DNA of 64,000 bases from Draconibacterium sp. (GCA_050179035.1 JBFXFM010000021.1:12-64011), one strand, 5' to 3'; counted from the first letter of the stretch, positions 1 through 10,480 are shown. Notes: generated by a model not told the origin, from the letters alone. Numbers and translations: made by a program.

Positions 1-121
1 ATGCCACAGTTTGCGGGCCGTTCATGATTTCGCCGGTTTCGCGCAACATGTGATAACCGTTTAGCGCAAACCTTATTTCGGGTTCGTACATGATGCCTAC
101 TTTTATGGTTGGCTGATTCAT
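1..121 (-). CDS. 5' part of a SpoIID/LytB-domain protein (runs off the left edge of the window)
   Basis: Own translation from ATG at 121: MNQPTIKVGIMYEPEIRFALNGYHMLRETGEIMNGPQTVA. It resembles the N-terminus of Bacteroidota SpoIID/LytB proteins, which as I recall follow GT2-DUF4922. Only 40 aa are visible. Confidence 0.55.
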   Translation of the reverse strand, partial: MNQPTIKVGIMYEPEIRFALNGYHMLRETGEIMNGPQTVA

Positions 122-177
122 TCTTTATTTATTAATTATTATTTTCTATTTATTAATTAACCTCATTATCCTATGCA

Positions 178-345: not shown

Positions 346-1347
346 CTAAACAACATTTATTCGTAACCTGTTTTTTATCTCTTTTTTTAATTCTCTGAAC
401 ATTGCATCATCAACTGAAACCTGTTCAAAAATATTGGCGATGTCGGCGGCAGTTATTTTGTCGAAATCCTCTTTCCGGGGCGTGATGAAAACGCCGCCAA
501 AATCGACGGATGCCGGGCTGAGCAGAATCTGTTTTTCACCTTCAGCAAAAAATTGCGACGGACGGTGCAATTTCCTTGGAAATAAATGAACCGTCCATTT
601 TGCATCCGAAAAATAACAGAGCACATTCAGCATCGGTTCCTTTTTTTCGGGTTGAAATTCATGAAACTTTGCCGTAAAAAACGAAATCGCCTGAACAGCT
701 TCTTCAAAACCGGTGGCTTCGATGGAAATCATGCGGCGCAGGTAGTTTTCAAAAGCCCAGATTTTTGTTAACCCGGTTTCGGAAAGCAGGTTGTTTTTAT
801 CGGTTTTTAATATTTCAAATTCGGCCTCAACGGGCATAAAACCATTTTCGCCGGCCTGAAAATGAAGGTGGTCGGGAGCCGAAGCGCCACACTCGGGACC
901 GTTATAAAACACGGTGGAACCTTCCATTTTTTGAGCGATTTGCAACATTTCGGCAATGTTTTCAAAAAACAACTGGTCGGTGTGCGCAAGCGATGAAATC
1001 GTAAAATGCCGGTGAAAAATGGGGAAAGGATTCACCAGAATCTGAAACCTGTCGCCACAGCCGATGGCTTTTTGCTCAGCCGGACGGTTTTCGTCGCACA
1101 AAAAACATTTGCGGGCGGCAATCGATGCTGTATCGACTTTCGCAGCCGACGACCGGATTCGCTCGGGATTGAACTGCACTTTTACCACAAATCCTCCGAA
1201 ATCAAACTGCTTCTCCTCCACGCTGGCAAGTCCAGCGTAATTGGCTGCAGCCAGCGGCCAGTCTTGCTTTTGCTCTTCGGCAAATTGGGTCAAAACCTGT
1301 TCTGCATTTTGCCCGGTTTCGGAAATTATATCTTGCAGGTCGTTCAT
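346..1347 (-). CDS. DUF4922 family protein (HIT/GalT-like nucleotidyltransferase/phosphorylase fold)
   Basis: 333 aa; VKVQFNPERIRSS, CFLC, LVNPFPIF, HFTI, FYNGPECGASAPDHLHFQ (HxHxQ motif). Confidence 0.85.
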   Translation of the reverse strand: MNDLQDIISETGQNAEQVLTQFAEEQKQDWPLAAANYAGLASVEEKQFDFGGFVVKVQFNPERIRSSAAKVDTASIAARKCFLCDENRPAEQKAIGCGDRFQILVNPFPIFHRHFTISSLAHTDQLFFENIAEMLQIAQKMEGSTVFYNGPECGASAPDHLHFQAGENGFMPVEAEFEILKTDKNNLLSETGLTKIWAFENYLRRMISIEATGFEEAVQAISFFTAKFHEFQPEKKEPMLNVLCYFSDAKWTVHLFPRKLHRPSQFFAEGEKQILLSPASVDFGGVFITPRKEDFDKITAADIANIFEQVSVDDAMFRELKKEIKNRLRINVV

Positions 1348-1437: not shown

Positions 1438-2904
1438 TCAATTCTTCTTCAAATTCATGTTTTTGCGGGCGAGCAGTTCGATGGTGCGGATGCGGTCTTT
1501 GTAAAGGTTGTGGCCGTTCATCACTTCGGTGCTCAACGCGGCGTCGGAGTTGTCGTCCCAACGGCGGCACAGGTAAATCGGGTTGTAAATTCGGCCAATC
1601 TGGTACCGGCGCGAAATGGCCAGCCCGAGCGCGTAATCCTCGCCGTAATTCACATTCGGCACCGGAATCTTGCGCAAAACCGGCGTGTAAAACGCCCGCG
1701 GAGCGCCCAGTCCGTTGATGCGCAACGCGTTGTTGCGACCGTTGTCGGGGGTCCACTCCTTGTGGTCGATAATGCCGGGCGGAATTTCTTCGAGCGCAAA
1801 GTTCACCATCTGGTAAGTGCCCACCACCATGGCGCAGTTTTGCGCATAAAACGCATCAACCACCTGTTGTACCGTGGTTTCATCGAAATAAATATCGTCG
1901 CTGTCGAGCTGAATCGCAAACTTTCCACAAGCGGCATTCATTGCTGCTTCGTTCCAGCAGCCACCAATTCCCAAATCTTTCCGTTCGGGAATTACATGAA
2001 TGAGTCGCTTGTCAGCCTGTGCATATTTTGCAATGATTTCGGTGGTGCCGTCAGTGGAGTAATTGTCAACAATAATCAGGTTAAAACTGAATGTTGTTTT
2101 TTGTGAAAGCACCGATTTGATGGCATCTTCGATGGTGCGCACCCTGTTTTTGACGGGTATGATAACCGATGCTTCGGTGGCAAATTCCTGCTCATCAAAC
2201 TTCACCGGGGTGAAAACAGGTTCAAGAAAAGCGCCTGCCTTTTTCAAGTGACGGGTGCACGCAATTTCCATTTCAATTTGAACGGCGCGGTTTTTCGGGT
2301 CAACATAGTCGAAGATTTTTTCGCCCGATTTGCGCAAATCCGACTCCTGTTCGGTGTACAAAAATTCGGGGATGCGAAGTACTCCTCCCAACAGCGAAAC
2401 ACCCAGCCGCAACGCGTACAACCCGGCAAATTTGTATGATCCGTCGATTCCGGCAGCGGCTTTTTTCAGCATTCCGGTGTTGTAAAACAGCACCGAACCA
2501 AAATTAAAATCGTCGCGCAAACTGCCTTCCTGGTAATCGATGACAGGCATGTTTTCAACCTTACCGTTTTTTACCGCGAGGTAGTTGGAATAGACCAACC
2601 CGCTTTGCGTATCGCTGGCAACCTGAAAAAATCTTTCCATGGCCAATTGTCCCATTTTCAGGGCGCTGGTGCGGTTGTAAATCATTGTGTATTCCGTTCC
2701 CGAAAGTTCAGCCATTTTCAGTACTGCTTTTCCTGAGCTGATTGATTCGGCTTCGAGCTGGTCAACGCCATCAATTTCAGCCAACTCACCGGGTTTGCAA
2801 ACCACAATAATTTTTGCAACCAGTTGCGATTTCTGCAGTCCGGCAACGGTTTGGAGCGTTTCTTCGGGTATTCCGAGTGGAAGAAAACAGGTTATGTTTT
2901 TCAT
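1438..2904 (-). CDS. Glycosyltransferase family 2 (degenerate N-terminal GT-A-like domain + intact C-terminal GT-A domain)
   Basis: 488 aa; SVIIPVKNR..IEDAIKSVL..Q, LIIVDNYSTDGT, IQLDSDD, GEDY motifs. Confidence 0.9.
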   Translation of the reverse strand: MKNITCFLPLGIPEETLQTVAGLQKSQLVAKIIVVCKPGELAEIDGVDQLEAESISSGKAVLKMAELSGTEYTMIYNRTSALKMGQLAMERFFQVASDTQSGLVYSNYLAVKNGKVENMPVIDYQEGSLRDDFNFGSVLFYNTGMLKKAAAGIDGSYKFAGLYALRLGVSLLGGVLRIPEFLYTEQESDLRKSGEKIFDYVDPKNRAVQIEMEIACTRHLKKAGAFLEPVFTPVKFDEQEFATEASVIIPVKNRVRTIEDAIKSVLSQKTTFSFNLIIVDNYSTDGTTEIIAKYAQADKRLIHVIPERKDLGIGGCWNEAAMNAACGKFAIQLDSDDIYFDETTVQQVVDAFYAQNCAMVVGTYQMVNFALEEIPPGIIDHKEWTPDNGRNNALRINGLGAPRAFYTPVLRKIPVPNVNYGEDYALGLAISRRYQIGRIYNPIYLCRRWDDNSDAALSTEVMNGHNLYKDRIRTIELLARKNMNLKKN

Positions 2905-3119: not shown

Positions 3120-6100
3120 TCATTTTATCCCAAAATACTTCAAAATCTGCCCCATCAATTCGTTCCGTTCGGTATCGGTTGTAATGGTTTCGAACGGGAA
3201 ACCAAAAACCATGGTTTTGGTTTTTCCATTGTTAGCCACTACAGCGCTTTTCTGATCGCCCTGATAGCGGAATAAAACGCTGGCTTCGTTGCCAACCGGC
3301 TCAATCGCATCAGGCGATTCGACCTTGTAAATGGCAGGATTATAATTCTGTACAAAATGGAAACCCGAAGGAAAATCAGTTTTCATGCTGTTGACAGGGA
3401 AAATTTTGCCCGACTTGCTGGCGTGGTTTGTCATGTGCCGGTAGTGCAGCACCGAAGCGGCAAATTTTGTAGCCAGCGTGTCACCACATAATTCGAGGTC
3501 GGTACCAACGTATGCACCCGAAACAAGGATTTTTGCATTTTCAGCCGAAGCATATTTTTCGATTGCGTTGCGCATCGCGGGTGTAAACAGCGTAAATGCC
3601 GGGGTGTTGGTTCCATACAACCGCCGCGTGGTTTTCTCTTCACCAAAAATAATGTCAAGCATCGCAAAACTGTTTTTATCCCAGTTGCCGGTTTCAAAAG
3701 CTTCGTCGCTCATCGAAATAAAACTGCCTCCATTGCTGACGATTGCAGCGCCGTGTACCAGTGGATAATCGAATGAATTGCCTGGTTTTACCAAAGCTTC
3801 CTGGTCGGCATGTGACGAGCCAAATCCCGAAGCATCATCGTCCTTCCACGGCGATTTTCTATCGGAATCGTACTGTTCGCCAATAAAGGCGATGTCATTT
3901 ATATAGGCTACACCTTCGTCTTCGGCATTATTAAAACCGGCCTCCTTTCCGTTATCAAACACCGCAGGTGCACAAATACGGTCGAAGGCATTGACTACCA
4001 AAACAGGTTTTTGGGTGCCATTAAAACTACAGGCCAGGATTTCGGAAGGGAAGCTTTCGCCACCGCTGTTTACTGCGGCAACTTTAAAACTGTAAATCAC
4101 TCCAGGTTTGATTTCGTTGAAAACAAAAGTGGTGTCAGTAACATCGGTTCCATTATCAAATCCATTGTTTCCGAGGCGTTTATAAATCCGGTACGAAGTT
4201 GGCACAGCCATGGGCTCCAGCGGGTCGGCCACCGGTTTCCAGCTCAGCCTGATTCTGTTATTTTCAGGTTGAATGGAAAAATGCGACACCGGCAGCGGCT
4301 GCACAGTGTAAGTTGTTCCGTTTTGTGCAGATAAAAACCTGAGTATGCCTTTGTAAAACGAGCGGCTGACATCGAATTTGAACCGCGGGTCAGTGGCCAG
4401 CGCCATGTCGGCAAAATTCTGGTGCGACAAAAACTCGGAGAGCATCGTGGGCACTTTTGGTTTCACGGCTTCGGAGTACTGTTTGTTCCACATGCCGCGG
4501 CGGGTCCATTCGGGCTCGTACAAGCGGCGCAAATCGTCGGTTACCTGAGTTTGGATGATGTCACACAAATCGCGGCTGGACCATTTCGACAGCCCGTTTG
4601 GAAAGGTGTCGGCACCAACTGTTGTATTATAAATGCCCAAAGTGCCTATAATAGCGCTGTCGGGAGTAATGCCTGCATCGGTATGAAAAGCCAGCGCCAG
4701 TTCCACCGGAATATTCAATCCGGGCGCGGGGTTGCCGGTTTTGGTACTGATTCCCATCAGGTAATTCACCCATTCGCCGCGACTCATGTAATCGTCTTTG
4801 TAATCTTCTTTTCCGCTTTCGCGCGCAGCATACAAAGCGGCGTTGGTGCCTCTGTGTGAGTAATCTTCCTTCTGCCGGTTGATGCTATACACTGTCGAGT
4901 CGGGCATTCCCGCATATTGCAGGTAGTAGCGCGCGGCTTCCTGGTAACGTGGCCGGCGGCTTGCAAACGGCAACCACAACGACGAATCGGTTTCAAAACC
5001 TTTTTCGTCACGGATTTTGCGCAGCATCTCAAGCTGCTCGGTTTTACCACGCACAATGTTGCTGGTTCCTCCGCCAAATTTTACCGCATCTGCCGAAACA
5101 AATCCGCCGGGTTCACCGGACTTGTTGCTGAGTTCAACGCTGCCGGTTTCGGGATTTTTGCCTTTTTCAAACTGAAAAGTACCGAGATAAATCCATGTTC
5201 CACCGCCCATTTGCTGGTTGATGCTGAATTCGGTTTTACCCCCGGCGTGGTGCACAGTGTATCGGGCACCGGTAATATTTGCTGCATCAGGACCGTACGA
5301 AACCGAAACTGAATAGCTGCCACTTTCGGGGAAGTCGGGCAGGTATTGTACAGATGCAGAACCTTTGGTATCTGTTTTTAACTTTCGGGTTTCGCCCATT
5401 TCAAATGGGTTTTCGCCATCGAAATAAAAGGGAACTTTCAGTCCGAAACCCTTGCGGTTATCGGGTTGCCAATTGCCGGATTCTATGTATTCCGCATTTT
5501 TAGAAGAGCCATCGGCATCGACAATAATTTCATTCTGCTGCGTATCGCGTTCTCGCGGAATGAGCACATTAGCGCCGGCATTTTCAAGCATTACCGCGAT
5601 GTACGGAACAACAAAACTCATGGTCCAGATATCTTCAACTGTCTGGAAAACACGGGCGCGCTGCCACTCCCACCGGTCAAGTGTATTTTCGTAATACCAG
5701 CCGTGGCTGTGCCATAGCGCAATGTGGCGACCGTTTAATCCTTCTGTAAATTTTGTATTTTTTGAGATATTCTCAACCAAAACAGGGCCGGAAGTTTTTT
5801 GAACTGACAAGCGTGCAGCATCTTTCGGATTTTCGGTGCGGTAATAATTGGGTATCAAATCGCTGATTTCCTTCCCCATCGTTTCGATGCTGAAACTGTA
5901 TTTTCTGAATTTTCTGCCCGATACATCTTTTAACAATGAATAGTAATCTTTTGTGTTCTCTTCGCGAAAAGGGTTATCAGAAAATCCGTCAGCCATTTTC
6001 AGCACAAACGTTTTTTGATTGTTGTCGATTATAACAGTATCAAATTTTGTTGAAAATGGAGTGCTTTTTTTAGCTTCCTGTGAAAACTTTCCGGCCGCCA

Positions 6101-6236
6101 CTTCTGCTTTTTTCAACAGTTTTTTGGGCTGTCCATTCACCGGATGTATTTGTATCCCGACAAACAGTAAAGCAGCAAGGCAAGTAAACACCAGGCGGCC
6201 AAACCCATTCCAATATATTGATTCCGAATGATTCAT
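3120..6236 (-). CDS. Large exported Amidase_3-like (N-acetylmuramoyl-L-alanine amidase fold) protein with an inserted golvesin/CBM-like domain and FN3 (family commonly labelled 'xanthan lyase')
   Basis: 1038 aa with an N-terminal signal-like segment; IALWHSHG..TVEDI..MLENAGANVLIPRERD, LAFHTDAG, PTMLSEFLSHQN; beta-sandwich insert ending in ADAVKF; FN3 (LSWKPV..YRIY..YSFKVAAVNSGGES). Confidence 0.75.
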   Translation of the reverse strand: MNHSESIYWNGFGRLVFTCLAALLFVGIQIHPVNGQPKKLLKKAEVAAGKFSQEAKKSTPFSTKFDTVIIDNNQKTFVLKMADGFSDNPFREENTKDYYSLLKDVSGRKFRKYSFSIETMGKEISDLIPNYYRTENPKDAARLSVQKTSGPVLVENISKNTKFTEGLNGRHIALWHSHGWYYENTLDRWEWQRARVFQTVEDIWTMSFVVPYIAVMLENAGANVLIPRERDTQQNEIIVDADGSSKNAEYIESGNWQPDNRKGFGLKVPFYFDGENPFEMGETRKLKTDTKGSASVQYLPDFPESGSYSVSVSYGPDAANITGARYTVHHAGGKTEFSINQQMGGGTWIYLGTFQFEKGKNPETGSVELSNKSGEPGGFVSADAVKFGGGTSNIVRGKTEQLEMLRKIRDEKGFETDSSLWLPFASRRPRYQEAARYYLQYAGMPDSTVYSINRQKEDYSHRGTNAALYAARESGKEDYKDDYMSRGEWVNYLMGISTKTGNPAPGLNIPVELALAFHTDAGITPDSAIIGTLGIYNTTVGADTFPNGLSKWSSRDLCDIIQTQVTDDLRRLYEPEWTRRGMWNKQYSEAVKPKVPTMLSEFLSHQNFADMALATDPRFKFDVSRSFYKGILRFLSAQNGTTYTVQPLPVSHFSIQPENNRIRLSWKPVADPLEPMAVPTSYRIYKRLGNNGFDNGTDVTDTTFVFNEIKPGVIYSFKVAAVNSGGESFPSEILACSFNGTQKPVLVVNAFDRICAPAVFDNGKEAGFNNAEDEGVAYINDIAFIGEQYDSDRKSPWKDDDASGFGSSHADQEALVKPGNSFDYPLVHGAAIVSNGGSFISMSDEAFETGNWDKNSFAMLDIIFGEEKTTRRLYGTNTPAFTLFTPAMRNAIEKYASAENAKILVSGAYVGTDLELCGDTLATKFAASVLHYRHMTNHASKSGKIFPVNSMKTDFPSGFHFVQNYNPAIYKVESPDAIEPVGNEASVLFRYQGDQKSAVVANNGKTKTMVFGFPFETITTDTERNELMGQILKYFGIK

Positions 6237-6252: not shown

Positions 6253-7362
6253 TTACACTTTGATAAATATTTTGCGGCGGTACAAAACATAGCCAATTGC
6301 CCAGAAAACCAGCACGTGGCTGATGGCATACAACAGCGAGCCATTCAGGTCTCCCGCAAACGGTACGAAAATGTGATTGTACAACCACGACGAACCGCTT
6401 ACCACATTACCATCGGTACCCGTAATTTTGATTAGCCTACCTAAAATTTTTGCCCACAAACCCGAAAGCGCAAAAATGAAAAGCGGATTTACGCCAAAAA
6501 CCACAAAAAACGAAGTCCAGCGCGAGAATCCTTTTATATCGATTACCCAGACCAAAGCGCCAAGTAACATGGCCGCCCAGCCTGCTGTGTACAAAACATA
6601 CGAGCTTGTCCAAAGTGGTTTGTTGAGTGGAAAAACAAGTCCCCACAACGCACCGGCTGCAACACCTGCCACACCAGCCAGCAACAATTTATTGGGTACA
6701 TATTTCCGTTCGCTGGTTTGAATGAGGGTACCAGCCAGATACCCAATAATTACTGTTACCACCGCCGGAATTGTACTGAATAAACCTTCGGGGTCGAACG
6801 GTATTCCAAAACCTTTGTAAAGATGATTTTCGCCTAAAACAGCCCGGTCGAAAGCCAGTGTTGCATTTTGTTCGAGCGAGTATGGGTCGGAACCGCCAAA
6901 ATACCAGAGCAAGCCCCAGTACATCAGCAAAATGGCGCCACCCAGGTACGGCAAATATTTGCGATTTACCGCAAGCACCAGCACCGCGGCCAAGCCGTAG
7001 GCAATGGCAATTCGCTGCAAAACGCCCAAAATCCGGAGTTTTGAATAATCGGTGGCCCATTGTGGAAATGAGTTCAAAAACAGGCCAATGGCAAAAATCA
7101 GCAATGTGCGTTTGCCAATCTTTAAAAGTGACTCCTTATTTAATGTATTGCCGTATTTCGAAAACGAAAAAAACATGGAAACGCCCACCACAAATAAAAA
7201 GAAAGGAAAAACAAGGTCGGTGGGTGTGCAACCGTGCCATTTTGCATGAAGCAGTGGTGCATACACATGCGACCAGCTTCCGGGTGTATTCACCAGAATC
7301 ATCATGGCAACAGTAATTCCCCTTAAAACATCGAGGGCAAGGTAGCGTTCAGTTTTTGGCAT
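6253..7362 (-). CDS. NagX/DUF5009 (HGSNAT-like) membrane protein
   Basis: 369 aa; RYLALDVLRGITVAMMILVN, HAKWHGCTPTDLVFPFFLF, GVLQRIA, FDPEGL, NKPLWTSSYVL; multi-TM. Confidence 0.85.
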   Translation of the reverse strand: MPKTERYLALDVLRGITVAMMILVNTPGSWSHVYAPLLHAKWHGCTPTDLVFPFFLFVVGVSMFFSFSKYGNTLNKESLLKIGKRTLLIFAIGLFLNSFPQWATDYSKLRILGVLQRIAIAYGLAAVLVLAVNRKYLPYLGGAILLMYWGLLWYFGGSDPYSLEQNATLAFDRAVLGENHLYKGFGIPFDPEGLFSTIPAVVTVIIGYLAGTLIQTSERKYVPNKLLLAGVAGVAAGALWGLVFPLNKPLWTSSYVLYTAGWAAMLLGALVWVIDIKGFSRWTSFFVVFGVNPLFIFALSGLWAKILGRLIKITGTDGNVVSGSSWLYNHIFVPFAGDLNGSLLYAISHVLVFWAIGYVLYRRKIFIKV

Positions 7363-7759: not shown

Positions 7760-8608
7760 ATGATACTGATAGCCGACAGCGGATCGACAAAAACAGCCTG
7801 GCGACTGGTTAACCAAAATGGTACGCAGGCCGAAATCACCACACAAGGTATGAACCCGTTTTTCAGAACCACCGATGATATTGCTCATGAAATCGGGGAA
7901 AAACTTTTACCGGTTACGGGAGCAGATATTTCAGAAATCTGGTTTTATGGTGCAGGGGTTGTGAGTGGGGAAAAAGGAGAAATTGTTAAACAGGCACTGC
8001 ATCGGTTTTATCCTGATGCCAGGATTGAAACTCAAAGCGATTTGGTGGGAGCTTGCCATGCGTTGCTGGGAAATCAGGCAGGCATTGCCTGTATTTTGGG
8101 TACAGGTTCGAATGCCTGTTATTATGATGGCAGTACTATTGCAGGGCATGTGTCTCCGCTGGGTTTTATTTTGGGCGACGAGGGCAGCGGTGCTGTGATG
8201 GGAAAACATCTGCTTGGCGATTATTTTAAGGAGGTTATGCCCACTGAATTACGGACTTCCTTTCAGCAAAAGTTTAACCTCACGCGCGAAGAAGCGCTGA
8301 ACCGTGTTTATCGAGAAGTACGGCCCAACCAGTTTCTGGCAGCTTTTATCCCTTTTTTGTCAGAAAATATAGCGCATCCTTATTGCCAGCTTTTTGTTGA
8401 AACCAATTTCAAAGCGTTTATCGAACGAAATGTGCTGAAGCTCCCTTCGAATCAGGGAAAGACGATTGGTTTTGCCGGTTCGGTAGCCTGGCATTTCAGC
8501 CCGGTTCTGAAAAAAGTGCTGGCACAATACCATTTTTTAAAACCTGTTATCCTCAAAGACCCGATTGACGGACTTGTTCAATACCATATACAACACATAA
8601 AAAATTAA
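7760..8608 (+). CDS. BadF/BadG/BcrA/BcrD-family sugar kinase (MurNAc/GlcNAc kinase, MurK-like)
   Basis: 282 aa; ILIADSGSTKT, FYGAG, ILGTGSN, GFILGDEGSG; directly upstream of murQ. Confidence 0.85.
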   Translation: MILIADSGSTKTAWRLVNQNGTQAEITTQGMNPFFRTTDDIAHEIGEKLLPVTGADISEIWFYGAGVVSGEKGEIVKQALHRFYPDARIETQSDLVGACHALLGNQAGIACILGTGSNACYYDGSTIAGHVSPLGFILGDEGSGAVMGKHLLGDYFKEVMPTELRTSFQQKFNLTREEALNRVYREVRPNQFLAAFIPFLSENIAHPYCQLFVETNFKAFIERNVLKLPSNQGKTIGFAGSVAWHFSPVLKKVLAQYHFLKPVILKDPIDGLVQYHIQHIKN

Positions 8609-8620
8609 ATCAAACCTGCC

Positions 8621-9442
8621 ATGAACCAGGAAAGTATTACCGAAAAAGATTCACTACACAACGATTTGGAAAAGATGTCGGTAAAAGACCTTTTACTAAA
8701 CATTCACGAAGAAGACAAGAAAGTTTTGCCAGCGGTAAATGCGACAATTCCGAAAATAGAAATGCTGGTGGAACAAATTCTGCAACGAATGAAAAAGGGA
8801 GGTCGTTTGTTTTATTTAGGCGCTGGTACCAGCGGCCGGCTGGGTATTCTGGATGCTTCAGAGATTCCGCCAACTTATGGTGTTGGTTACGACCTTGTAA
8901 TCGGACTGATTGCCGGTGGCGACCGCGCCATCCGCAAAGCTGTTGAGGCTGCCGAAGACAACGAAGAAATGGGCTGGAATGAACTTCAAAAATTTAATAT
9001 CAACACGTTGGATACAGTGGTTGGCATTGCTGCTTCGGGCCGTACACCGTATGTTGTTGGTGCGCTGCGCAAAGCCCGCGAAAACGGAATTCTTACCGGA
9101 TGTATTGTGAATAATCCGAACAGTGTGCTTGCCCAAAATGCTGACGTAGCTATTGAAGCTGTTGTGGGGCCTGAGTTTGTTACTGGTAGCACCCGCATGA
9201 AATCGGGTACATCACAAAAACTTATCCTGAACATGATTACCACTTCGCTGATGATAAAACTGGGCAGGGTGAAAGGCAACAAAATGGTAAATATGCAACT
9301 TACCAATCAGAAACTTGTACACCGGGGCACACGCATGATAATGGCCGAACTTGGGTACAACGAGCAAACTGCCAAACGTTTACTGCTTCTGCACGGGTCG
9401 GTGAATGCAGTGTTGGAAAAGGCCAATAATCAGGAATTATAA
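8621..9442 (+). CDS. murQ: N-acetylmuramic acid 6-phosphate etherase
   Basis: 273 aa; GAGTSGRLGILDASE, GIAASGRTPYV, VGPEFVTGSTRMKSGTSQKLILNM. Confidence 0.95.
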   Translation: MNQESITEKDSLHNDLEKMSVKDLLLNIHEEDKKVLPAVNATIPKIEMLVEQILQRMKKGGRLFYLGAGTSGRLGILDASEIPPTYGVGYDLVIGLIAGGDRAIRKAVEAAEDNEEMGWNELQKFNINTLDTVVGIAASGRTPYVVGALRKARENGILTGCIVNNPNSVLAQNADVAIEAVVGPEFVTGSTRMKSGTSQKLILNMITTSLMIKLGRVKGNKMVNMQLTNQKLVHRGTRMIMAELGYNEQTAKRLLLLHGSVNAVLEKANNQEL

Positions 9443-9448
9443 CCGGGA

Positions 9449-10180
9449 CTATTTTATTTGTTTGAAAAACTTGTTGTACAACTGCATATTGCGATCGATG
9501 TGCGCCTGCATTTTTTCGTAGGCCCGGTCGGCATCGCGCTCCCTTATGGCATTTACAATTTCTTTATGATATCCAAGCGTGATTTCCTTTTCACCCTCAA
9601 TGTTGGCGTAAATAAAGTTGCGCATTCGCGGTAAAAGGTTGTGTACCGGCTCCATGGTAACAATTACAAAAGGGTTTTCGGTGGCGCGGGCTACGGTCAG
9701 GTGAAAGCGGTTGTCGATGTCCGATTCAAGCTGCGTATTATCGGGGTTGCATTTGGCAAACTCAACTAAGTTGGCCTCCATGTTTTTTAAATCCTCATCG
9801 GTACGGTTAATTGCCGCCATTCGGGCAATTTCAGGTTCAAAAGCGAGCCTGAGTTCTATAATCTGTCCAATCAGGTTTTCATCAAACTTGAGGTCGTAAT
9901 ACAAATTCAGCGAGCTGATGGCATCTTTGATGTCGATGTTGGTAACCACCATTCCGCTACCTTTTTTAATCTGAATGAGGCCGCGTGCACTTAACCGCCT
10001 GAGCGCTTCTCGCAATGCAGTGCGGCTCACGGCAAACATTTCGCATAGTTCGCGCTCCGAAGGTAATTTCGAGCCAATCGGAAGTTTTTTCTCACGGATG
10101 GCACGTTCGATATTACGTTCAATCTTCTGGCTTAACGTTTGGGTGGTACCTATTTTCTGGAAAATCTGATCAAGATCCAT
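9449..10180 (-). CDS. FadR/GntR-family transcriptional regulator
   Basis: LPSERELCEMFAVSRTALREALRRL HTH plus FCD domain; likely start MDLDQIF at 10180 (the ORF track extends to 10291). Confidence 0.92.
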   Translation of the reverse strand: MDLDQIFQKIGTTQTLSQKIERNIERAIREKKLPIGSKLPSERELCEMFAVSRTALREALRRLSARGLIQIKKGSGMVVTNIDIKDAISSLNLYYDLKFDENLIGQIIELRLAFEPEIARMAAINRTDEDLKNMEANLVEFAKCNPDNTQLESDIDNRFHLTVARATENPFVIVTMEPVHNLLPRMRNFIYANIEGEKEITLGYHKEIVNAIRERDADRAYEKMQAHIDRNMQLYNKFFKQIK

Positions 10181-10266
10181 AATTAACTGGTGTTGAAAAT
10201 TGTATTGGTTAAGTAATCGATTTAACCCGATTGATACAAAGAAAATGATTTTTCGAAACCAAATGC

Positions 10267-10275
10267 TGTAATACA
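10267..10275. promoter_or_regulatory. Candidate autoregulatory GntR/FadR operator
   Basis: Palindrome TGTA-A-TACA upstream of the regulator gene. Confidence 0.45.
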
Positions 10276-10480
10276 TACTACAGAAATACATTTTTTTCGA
10301 AATGGCCGGTTCAGTTTAATTAGCTGAGCCACGATTCGGGGACCAGATTCTCAGGCGTTAAAAGATGTTATTACTGGGTTAAATTTGGGCGCGTGCGTTG
10401 GAAAGGTGCTGTGTGTTAAGTTATTTTGTCGTAAATTCACCCCGCTAAAAAAATTGTTTAACCAATTAAAATTAAATAAG

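Follow-up and report, generated by a model that had tools for sequence, protein, structure and literature searches.

What does a protein whose relatives are often named 'xanthan lyase' do next to the genes for the utilization of N-acetylmuramic acid (MurNAc)? The question is raised by a locus of Draconibacterium sp. (GCA_050179035.1 JBFXFM010000021.1:12-64011), of which a stretch of 64,000 nucleotides, hereafter the window, was analysed. An open reading frame on its minus strand (3120..6236) encodes 1038 amino acids plus a stop codon; this gene and its product, a predicted split amidase of the Amidase_3 type, are referred to below as the target. An earlier note, made from the sequence alone, had proposed a zinc amidase interrupted by an inserted carbohydrate-binding domain, exported and feeding MurNAc recycling. 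We followed up this proposal computationally, and hold with fair confidence that the target is a predicted Sec-exported, zinc-dependent N-acetylmuramoyl-L-alanine amidase of Amidase_3 fold which serves salvage. Its chemistry would be ordinary for Amidase_3, and the name amidase already stands on a few database entries. What is new is a widely distributed, largely misnamed Amidase_3 variant, whose nested insert has two modules and which forms part of a predicted exported protein of four domains. It is of interest because it would fill a gap which has been named in the scavenging of cell walls by Bacteroidota and Tannerella forsythia, and because an annotation can be put right.

An Amidase_3 core recognized after removal of an insert

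The four Amidase_3-type residues, which had been claimed in the order His, Glu, His, Glu, were all located in the open reading frame in that order, namely H178 in WHSHG (residues 175-179; codon 5703-5705), E201 in TVEDI (codon 5634-5636), H518 in AFHTDAG (codon 4683-4685) and E601 in MLSEFL (codon 4434-4436), each on the minus strand. They are invariant at every occupied column of an alignment of 151 representatives of 50%-identity clusters, which reaches down to about 35% identity, and equally so in a curated alignment of 121 sequences (36-67% identity). Because of this invariance in both alignments, the match to the motifs goes beyond chance. The proposed ligand motif WHSHG contains two histidines, the first of which, H176, varies among relatives (Q, H, P, N or A), while the second is conserved; H178 is therefore the candidate ligand, and the motif stands for this residue and not for H176. 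These residues are kept in a very large family: clustering at 90% leaves more than 6500 homologues, and at 50% identity 887 clusters were counted (E <= 1e-30). Those matches which carry a name come from Bacteroidota, with gut, environmental and engineered habitats represented.

Recognition of the fold by sequence profiles depends on the region between the second and the third ligand. Nearly all close relatives (42 of 43, at least 58% identical) match Pfam Amidase_3 (PF01520) weakly (E <= 0.1), and for some intact relatives PF01520 is among the precomputed matches; the sub-threshold match of the intact target covers the C-terminal half of the profile only (positions 91-173). The region between ligands 2 and 3 was then removed in silico from 29 diverse members, such that the stretches corresponding to residues 163-234 and 503-640 were kept. 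After this splicing, all 29 sequences match Pfam Amidase_3 (best E 1.3e-12), and the target's own spliced sequence reaches 24.3 bits (E 3.8e-5) over profile positions 29-173 of 174. Searched against all sequences of the Protein Data Bank (PDB), a profile of the spliced core returned Amidase_3 amidases as seven of its eight matches, headed by CwlD (7rag, 2e-4) and LytH (7tj4, 1e-3) and followed by 3ne8, 5emi, 8c2o, 4bin and 7agl; the eighth is a Cullin-1 chain with an E-value of 1.5. PDB searches with the intact protein or the intact-family profile found no amidase, only the xanthan-lyase binding module and fibronectin type III (FN3) domains, and the amidases emerged only once the insert had been spliced out. 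More generally, a catalytic domain which is split by a nested insert drops below the thresholds of hidden Markov models, and in silico removal of the insert restores its recognition.

The spliced core (488 sequences) was also aligned by hhalign, in global mode, with a three-sequence profile of AmiA, AmiB and AmiC of Escherichia coli (E 4.2e-5). In this alignment H178, E201, H518 and E601 fall on AmiC H196, E211, H265 and E373, and the surrounding motifs pair as IALWHSHG/IMLDPGHG, TVED/TREK, AFHTDA/SIHADA and PTMLSEF/PSILVET (family/AmiC); against the single AmiC sequence, the C-terminal half alone aligned. We take H196, E211 and H265 of AmiC to be the zinc ligands and E373 to be the catalytic glutamate. 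Mapping and invariance together place in the target the ligand set of Amidase_3, with His, Glu and His in order on strand 1, helix 1 and strand 3, and a Glu on a late strand.

Predicted structure and evolutionary couplings

When AlphaFold was given an alignment of only 43 sequences, all at least 58% identical, the predicted local distance difference test score (pLDDT) was 63 and stayed below 50 in the amidase core. The 121-sequence alignment, assembled via two extra homology searches seeded with distant representatives, yielded a model with a mean pLDDT of 93.4 and a predicted template-modelling score of 0.92. In this model, the N-terminal half of the Amidase_3 domain (residues 163-234; 5535..5750, minus strand) comprises a first strand (171-175) followed by H178, a short extra hairpin, helix 1 (201-219) which starts at E201, and a second strand (223-225), and it contains the motif PRERD; the insert follows. 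The C-terminal half (residues 503-640; 4317..4730, minus strand) resumes with a strand (511-520) ending at H518 in HTDAG, and continues with a strand (532-536), a helix (552-572), a further strand (579-584), the strand which bears E601 (597-604) and C-terminal helices. As modelled, this order of secondary structure elements is that of Amidase_3.

The combination of AlphaFold and Foldseek, which the earlier note had named as the check on its claim, came out in favour of the fold. Foldseek assigned a probability of 1.0 to the matches with CwlD (7rag_B, TM 0.57 on the target), CwlV (1jwq, 0.52) and Rv3717 (4m6h, 0.58), and likewise to several phage endolysins of the Amidase_3 family. Model and Foldseek thereby agree on the alpha/beta fold of the solved Amidase_3 members, with alignments that do not span the insert.

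Whether the two halves form one domain in which the four residues come together was approached indirectly, through evolutionary couplings, which were computed by mean-field direct coupling analysis over both core halves in 494 family sequences (effective number 194). The pairs A514-T597 and F517-S600 set the strand register and therefore place H518 beside E601, while S177-V200, S177-T205 and H176-M206 connect the loop of H178 with the start of the E201 helix. The pair W204-A614, which is the third strongest overall at about 14 standard deviations above the mean, bridges the insert, and W175-Q606, T205-S588 and R188-M582 likewise join the half before the insert to the half behind it. These sequence-derived couplings indirectly support one assembled domain with one active site. 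With splice test, mapping onto AmiC and Foldseek all pointing to a zinc-amidase fold that is split by an inserted CBM-like (carbohydrate-binding module-like) domain, the original claim is upheld in this respect, and we are highly confident that the target has the Amidase_3 fold with an intact active site.

The target can thus be compared with the solved amidases CwlD of Clostridioides difficile (7rag), CwlV of Paenibacillus (1jwq), LytH of Staphylococcus aureus (7tj4), Rv3717 of Mycobacterium tuberculosis (4m6h) and AmiA and AmiC of E. coli (8c2o and 4bin). It has in common with them the fold, the order of His, Glu and His with a catalytic Glu, and the motifs I-x-L-x-x-x-H-G, E at the start of helix 1, L-x-x-x-G-x-x-V-x-x-x-R-x-x-D, H-x-D-A and P-x-x-L-x-E. 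In contrast to these enzymes, it has within its catalytic domain a nested insert of about 270 amino acids as well as an additional 8-residue hairpin between H178 and E201. It also lacks AMIN, LysM and SPOR domains, no autoinhibitory helix was identified in it, and at about 1000 amino acids it carries three further domains and falls below the Pfam gathering score.

The nested insert and the origin of a misleading name

The insert consists of two modules, a sandwich and a conserved helical module. The nested beta-sandwich, which is Golvesin_C/CBM-like (residues 236-390; 5067..5531, minus strand), was delimited by Pfam and by the model; Golvesin_C (PF25275) matches residues 279-387 with 94.4 bits, above the gathering threshold of 31.6 bits, and is present in all 43 close relatives aligned. 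The helical module (residues 395-500; 4737..5054, minus strand), delimited by alignments and model, has the invariant residues E433, Y437, Q440, D478, Y479 and D482, while R486 and W489 vary little if at all; the place of canonical helix 2 is probably taken by the last helix of this module. The modelled sandwich lies between ligands 2 and 3, within a few nucleotides of where it had been placed beforehand (5070-5530), but the insert as a whole is about 270 and not about 150 amino acids long.

The helical module differs in length between clades: that of the Prolixibacteraceae/Draconibacterium clade exceeds those of the Alistipes and Bacteroidales clades by about 45 residues, with the difference located at residues ~399-424 and ~452-476 (window ~4809-5042). 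Only a core motif, ...PR[FY]xEGARYWLQWAGF...DYxDDYxSRGxWVN..., is common to the helical modules of these clades.

NCBI labels many relatives of the target 'xanthan lyase', and a few are auto-annotated as N-acetylmuramoyl-L-alanine amidase. Judged by sequence comparison, the former name derives from the sandwich alone. The sandwich matches solely residues 944-1036 of the xanthan lyase of Paenibacillus nanensis (6f2p), a segment which we take to be a binding module. Homology to the nested sandwich is confined to the C-terminal stretch of this enzyme (28% identity over ~100-155 residues). Its catalytic machinery of polysaccharide lyase family 8 (PL8), which comprises an alpha/alpha-toroid and beta-sheet domains, is absent from the target; there was no match to the Lyase_8 families of Pfam, and no PL8 lyase domain was found by Pfam, PDB profile search or Foldseek. 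Much of a large family is mislabelled owing to one binding module, and its annotation is to be corrected.

Predicted export and flanking domains

The target begins with a signal-peptide-like N-terminus (residues 1-35; 6132..6236, minus strand), in which a hydrophobic stretch (15-28) is followed by VNG|Q. A crude scan found an N-terminal hydrophobic run in 428 of 479 family members and [AGSV]Q after this run in 247, and the target and its close relatives have G/A-Q just past it; a lipobox-like sequence occurs in 38 of the 479 only. In Bacteroidota, signal peptidase I cleaves before Gln. Since [AGSV]Q is common and the lipobox rare, the sequences point to export of the target with cleavage by signal peptidase I before Gln. 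The proposal of an exported muropeptide amidase thereby gains a signal-peptide-like N-terminus in most of the family; hydrolysis of the MurNAc-L-Ala bond and the preferred substrate, polymer or muropeptide, are what we infer.

Behind the catalytic domain, an FN3 domain followed by a further domain had been expected, and both are there. The FN3 domain (residues 650-737; 4026..4289, minus strand) is matched by Pfam fn3 at residues 652-734 (E 3.4e-9), and the modelled C-terminal alpha/beta domain of about 290 amino acids (residues 745-1038; 3123..4004, minus strand) has a pLDDT above 90. In seven diverse members, this C-terminal domain matches no Pfam family even at E <= 1. A Foldseek match to 3fij_D (240 columns, TM 0.51) probably falls on it, and the model thus possibly shows a class-I glutamine-amidotransferase (GATase)-like fold. 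The expected nucleophile elbow presumably reads S-G-A-Y, with Ala in place of the GATase Cys; by analogy, the domain may be a non-catalytic GATase relative. Several of its residues are invariant, among them N749, G786, N820, S841, G865, G907 and P1014. Between signal peptide and catalytic domain, the model has an N-terminal alpha/beta domain (residues 37-160; 5757..6128, minus strand; pLDDT above 90), for which no Pfam match was found.

The target within a salvage locus

The genes around the target form a MurNAc/peptidoglycan salvage locus, and the setting proposed for it, MurNAc recycling, is supported. As had been claimed, it is divergent from murK and murQ, which lie on the plus strand. The MurNAc kinase of the MurK family (7760..8608) matches PDB entries 8oqw and 8ow9, the latter titled 'putative novel MurNAc kinase', over its full length (E ~1e-70), and MurQ, the MurNAc-6-phosphate etherase (8621..9442), matches NCBIfam TIGR00274 with 310 bits against a cut-off of 302. 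Directly upstream of the target, a gene for a membrane acyltransferase of the NagX/HGSNAT family (6253..7362, minus strand) is co-oriented with it; the orientation had been given correctly, while the name nagX is justified by family resemblance alone, its score of 156 bits being below the equivalog cut-off of 480. Because the two genes share a strand and are separated by a 16-nt gap, they are probably part of one transcript. Downstream of the target follow a glycosyltransferase of family 2 (GT2; 488 amino acids; 1438..2904, minus strand) and, behind it, a DUF4922 protein resembling HIT-type nucleotide-sugar phosphorylases (346..1347, minus strand). DUF4922 has been described as the HIT-type domain of GDP-L-galactose/GDP-glucose phosphorylases; by sequence, no PDB relative of it was found. 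At the left end of the window, the start of a SpoIID/LytB-like gene (1..122, minus strand; 40 amino acids) runs off the stretch. Tblastn without low-complexity filter found this fragment to be 92.5% identical to the start of a Pfam SpoIID gene of Draconibacterium orientale (L053:16079-17413), while BLASTP of the same fragment against that protein gave no match.

Conservation of this cassette was surveyed in 80 related loci from species-representative genomes, many of them incomplete and the T. forsythia locus not among them. The trio of target, GT2 and DUF4922 is encoded on a single strand in 62-67 of the 80 loci (GT2 in 62, DUF4922 in 67), including those of relatives which are only 42-49% identical. 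A NagX-family gene adjoins the target in 46 loci, and a SpoIID/LytB-like gene directly follows DUF4922 in at least 25. Among the salvage functions, MurK was counted in 46 loci, MurQ in 40, NamZ in 39, SpoIID in 33, a fusion of glycoside hydrolase family 3 (GH3) and beta-lactamase in 31, an AmpG-like major facilitator superfamily (MFS) transporter in 29, and a transporter of the sodium:solute symporter family (SSF) in 25. In D. orientale (L053), whose target is 83% identical, the order is target, GT2, DUF4922, SpoIID, MFS transporter and NamZ; the window keeps this order as far as the start of SpoIID, and murK-murQ are upstream and divergent in both.

Further genes of the related loci touch on the same pathway. 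In 31 of the 80 loci (e.g. L004 15948-18980), one gene encodes a NagZ-like GH3 domain fused to a beta-lactamase-fold domain and resembles a fusion of NagZ and the exo-amidase AmiE of Bacillus subtilis. If this reading holds, it suggests that these loci encode two amidase types with a division of labour between polymer and MurNAc-peptide. About 30 other loci, together with L004 (2789-8762), have three more genes upstream of the NagX-like gene, which are missing from the window: a fusion of glycoside hydrolase family 9 and a polysaccharide deacetylase of carbohydrate esterase family 4, a transglutaminase-like protein, and an SSF (MurT-like) transporter. These genes and the NagX-type N-acetyltransferase, taken together, hint that such loci deal with amino sugars of modified peptidoglycan which have been de-N-acetylated. 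In Alistipes (L081 8560-10011), an SSF gene overlaps the start of the target by ~10 nt. Because MurT of T. forsythia belongs to the same superfamily as this symporter, the two genes may, by analogy, form a minimal transporter-amidase pair.

The operon of Tannerella forsythia and other known systems

In the MurNAc-auxotrophic periodontal pathogen T. forsythia, the salvage operon Tanf_08345-08385 comprises genes for a xanthan lyase to which no function is ascribed and for two glycosyltransferases, followed by lytB, ampG, namZ1, murT, murK and murQ, and is expressed as a single transcript under the control of GppX. NamZ1 of this organism is active on peptide-free glycans only and its cell extracts release only peptide-free disaccharides, and the authors state that its MurNAc-L-Ala amidase is 'so far unidentified'. 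The public name 'xanthan lyase' of Tanf_08345 is common to the target family, and composition and order of the operon agree with those of L053 (xanthan-lyase-like gene, two glycosyltransferase genes, lytB/SpoIID, ampG, namZ) and, up to the start of SpoIID, with those of the window; GT2 and DUF4922 probably correspond to the two 'glycosyltransferases'. There are also differences, as murK and murQ come last in T. forsythia, whereas they are upstream and divergent in the window and in L053, and in the window a NagX-like gene precedes the target and murT is not adjacent. Gene order and the shared annotation name thus suggest, by analogy, that the target is orthologous to Tanf_08345. Full-text literature searches returned no paper which gives Tanf_08345 a function or ties the target family to amidase activity. 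The target is consequently a candidate for the missing stem-peptide amidase of T. forsythia, acting before NamZ, LytB and AmpG. For the step with which Bacteroidota begin to scavenge cell walls, it is the best candidate.

The pairing of an amidase with a SpoIID protein is familiar from B. subtilis. In the systems SpoIIP-SpoIID, which acts in engulfment, and LytC-LytB, the amidase strips the stem peptides and SpoIID then cuts the denuded glycan. The target cassette resembles them in encoding an Amidase_3-type amidase (predicted) with a SpoIID-domain protein; it differs in that these systems belong to another organism and serve sporulation or autolysis and not nutrient salvage, and in that the cassette is known from its genes alone. 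AmiE holds the same proposed position in its pathway, namely the removal of peptides which enables glycan degradation by NamZ and NagZ, but has a beta-lactamase/penicillin-binding-protein-type fold instead of Amidase_3, and its possible counterpart in the related loci is the separate GH3-beta-lactamase fusion gene.

From these comparisons, the following mechanism can be proposed. In the periplasm, the sandwich, perhaps with the FN3 and C-terminal domains, would hold the peptidoglycan glycan. H178, E201 and H518 would bind Zn2+ and E601 would act as the general base, such that the lactyl-L-Ala amide of peptidoglycan or muropeptides is hydrolysed and peptide-free glycan strands result. The SpoIID/LytB-type lytic transglycosylase, the exo-muramidase NamZ and NagZ, for which peptide-free glycan would be the sole accepted substrate, could then cut the denuded strands, an order of amidase before SpoIID which would mirror that of SpoIIP-SpoIID and LytC-LytB. 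Disaccharides and MurNAc would be imported via AmpG or MurT, and MurK and MurQ would turn MurNAc into GlcNAc-6-phosphate (GlcNAc, N-acetylglucosamine).

Weighing the explanations

A number of results speak against an Amidase_3 amidase in the service of salvage. The intact target scores 16.5 bits with Pfam Amidase_3, below the gathering cut-off of 27 bits, and its spliced sequence, at 24.3 bits, is still under it, a shortfall which the insert largely explains. The hhalign probabilities are merely 31-42%, and the local alignments of Foldseek (129-180 columns), unable to bridge the insert, bear out the fold for no more than the larger half. As for the genomic context, linkage fades in distant clades such as Alistipes and Candidatus Coprenecus, where the salvage neighbours are largely absent; in the latter, no salvage genes lie nearby. 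An AmiE-like beta-lactamase-fold domain is present in many related loci, and the target need therefore not be the sole amidase of the pathway. GT2 and DUF4922, both cytoplasmic-looking, sit within the cassette without a known role in peptidoglycan salvage, and an older paper termed the T. forsythia operon 'glycosylation related'.

The last points lead to the idea that an Amidase_3-fold zinc hydrolase acts on the amide of another glycoconjugate, with GT2 and DUF4922 involved in glycan or glycoprotein modification. These two are indeed the most tightly linked neighbours, the operon of T. forsythia was first described as related to glycosylation, and the nested CBM-like domain is common to a xanthan-active enzyme. 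We nevertheless regard this idea as improbable, as all structural and sequence neighbours of the catalytic core are MurNAc-L-Ala amidases and the remaining conserved neighbours (SpoIID, AmpG, NamZ, NagZ-like, MurK and MurQ) are enzymes of peptidoglycan and MurNAc. The same relatives raise the question whether the amidase serves the cell's own wall, in growth, division or turnover, instead of scavenging foreign walls: the closest characterised ones (AmiA/B/C, LytH and CwlD) act on the wall of the producer, and a periplasmic location would allow access to its own sacculus. The target, however, has none of the AMIN/LysM/SPOR-type domains which target division amidases and is embedded among catabolic and uptake genes, beside murK-murQ, which makes a role confined to the own wall quite improbable; since salvage and turnover are not mutually exclusive, it would in any case be a variant of the salvage explanation and not its true opposite.

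It is very improbable that the target, catalytically dead, only binds glycan as a scaffold or 'enhancer' and recruits or activates other wall hydrolases. Its several binding-type modules (CBM-like sandwich, FN3 and a C-terminal domain whose fold may be GATase1-like) and the SpoIID/LytB 'amidase enhancer' homologue in the same cassette would suit such a role, but metal ligands, catalytic Glu, HxDAG and other residues close to the active site are invariant family-wide, and pseudoenzymes normally lose such residues. A lyase for xanthan or another polysaccharide, as the public annotation of many relatives and the significant match to 6f2p would have it, is barely credible, because this match is limited to residues 944-1036 and a PL8 lyase domain was not detected. 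By Pfam, PDB profile search and Foldseek alike, the identity as xanthan lyase is effectively refuted. A predicted peptidoglycan or muropeptide amidase which serves salvage is, in sum, what the target probably is.

A bolder version of salvage, which we consider unlikely as a whole, would have the target family, including Tanf_08345, act as the periplasmic amidase of Bacteroidota for scavenged foreign peptidoglycan, with insert and C-terminal domain as modules of selectivity or activation, and GT2 and DUF4922 as an undescribed, nucleotide-sugar-linked step which reuses imported GlcNAc-MurNAc disaccharides. In this version, these modules would do in cis what separate partners do for other amidases, GerS for CwlD and ActH for LytH, and the own sacculus would be spared. 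A nucleotide-dependent processing of imported GlcNAc-MurNAc by GT2 and DUF4922 is pure speculation.

Further observations on the window

For about 240 amino acids, the N-terminal part of GT2 is without assignment. The nearest genome locus to the window belongs to a metagenome-assembled genome of Draconibacterium sp., whose target protein is 87% identical. The exact window sequence is present in a landfill-metagenome run, and near-identical sequence in biofilm and wastewater metagenomes; a search for RNA evidence for the window turned up only these metagenomic DNA runs (landfill, biofilm, wastewater).

In the gap of ~220 nt between the DUF4922 and SpoIID-like genes lies a nested perfect hairpin (200-297), which occurs once in the window and has outer arms of 12 nt (200-211 and 286-297) and inner arms of 18 nt (230-247 and 251-268). 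This gap is lacking in D. orientale (L053), where one gene directly adjoins the other. The hairpin could be a terminator or attenuator, or a small inserted repeat element. Directly after murQ, a regulator of the GntR/FCD type is encoded on the minus strand (9449-10291), with NanR, below cut-off, as its best NCBIfam match; 11 related loci have it in the same place, and it may be regarded as a candidate for a MurNAc-responsive regulator.

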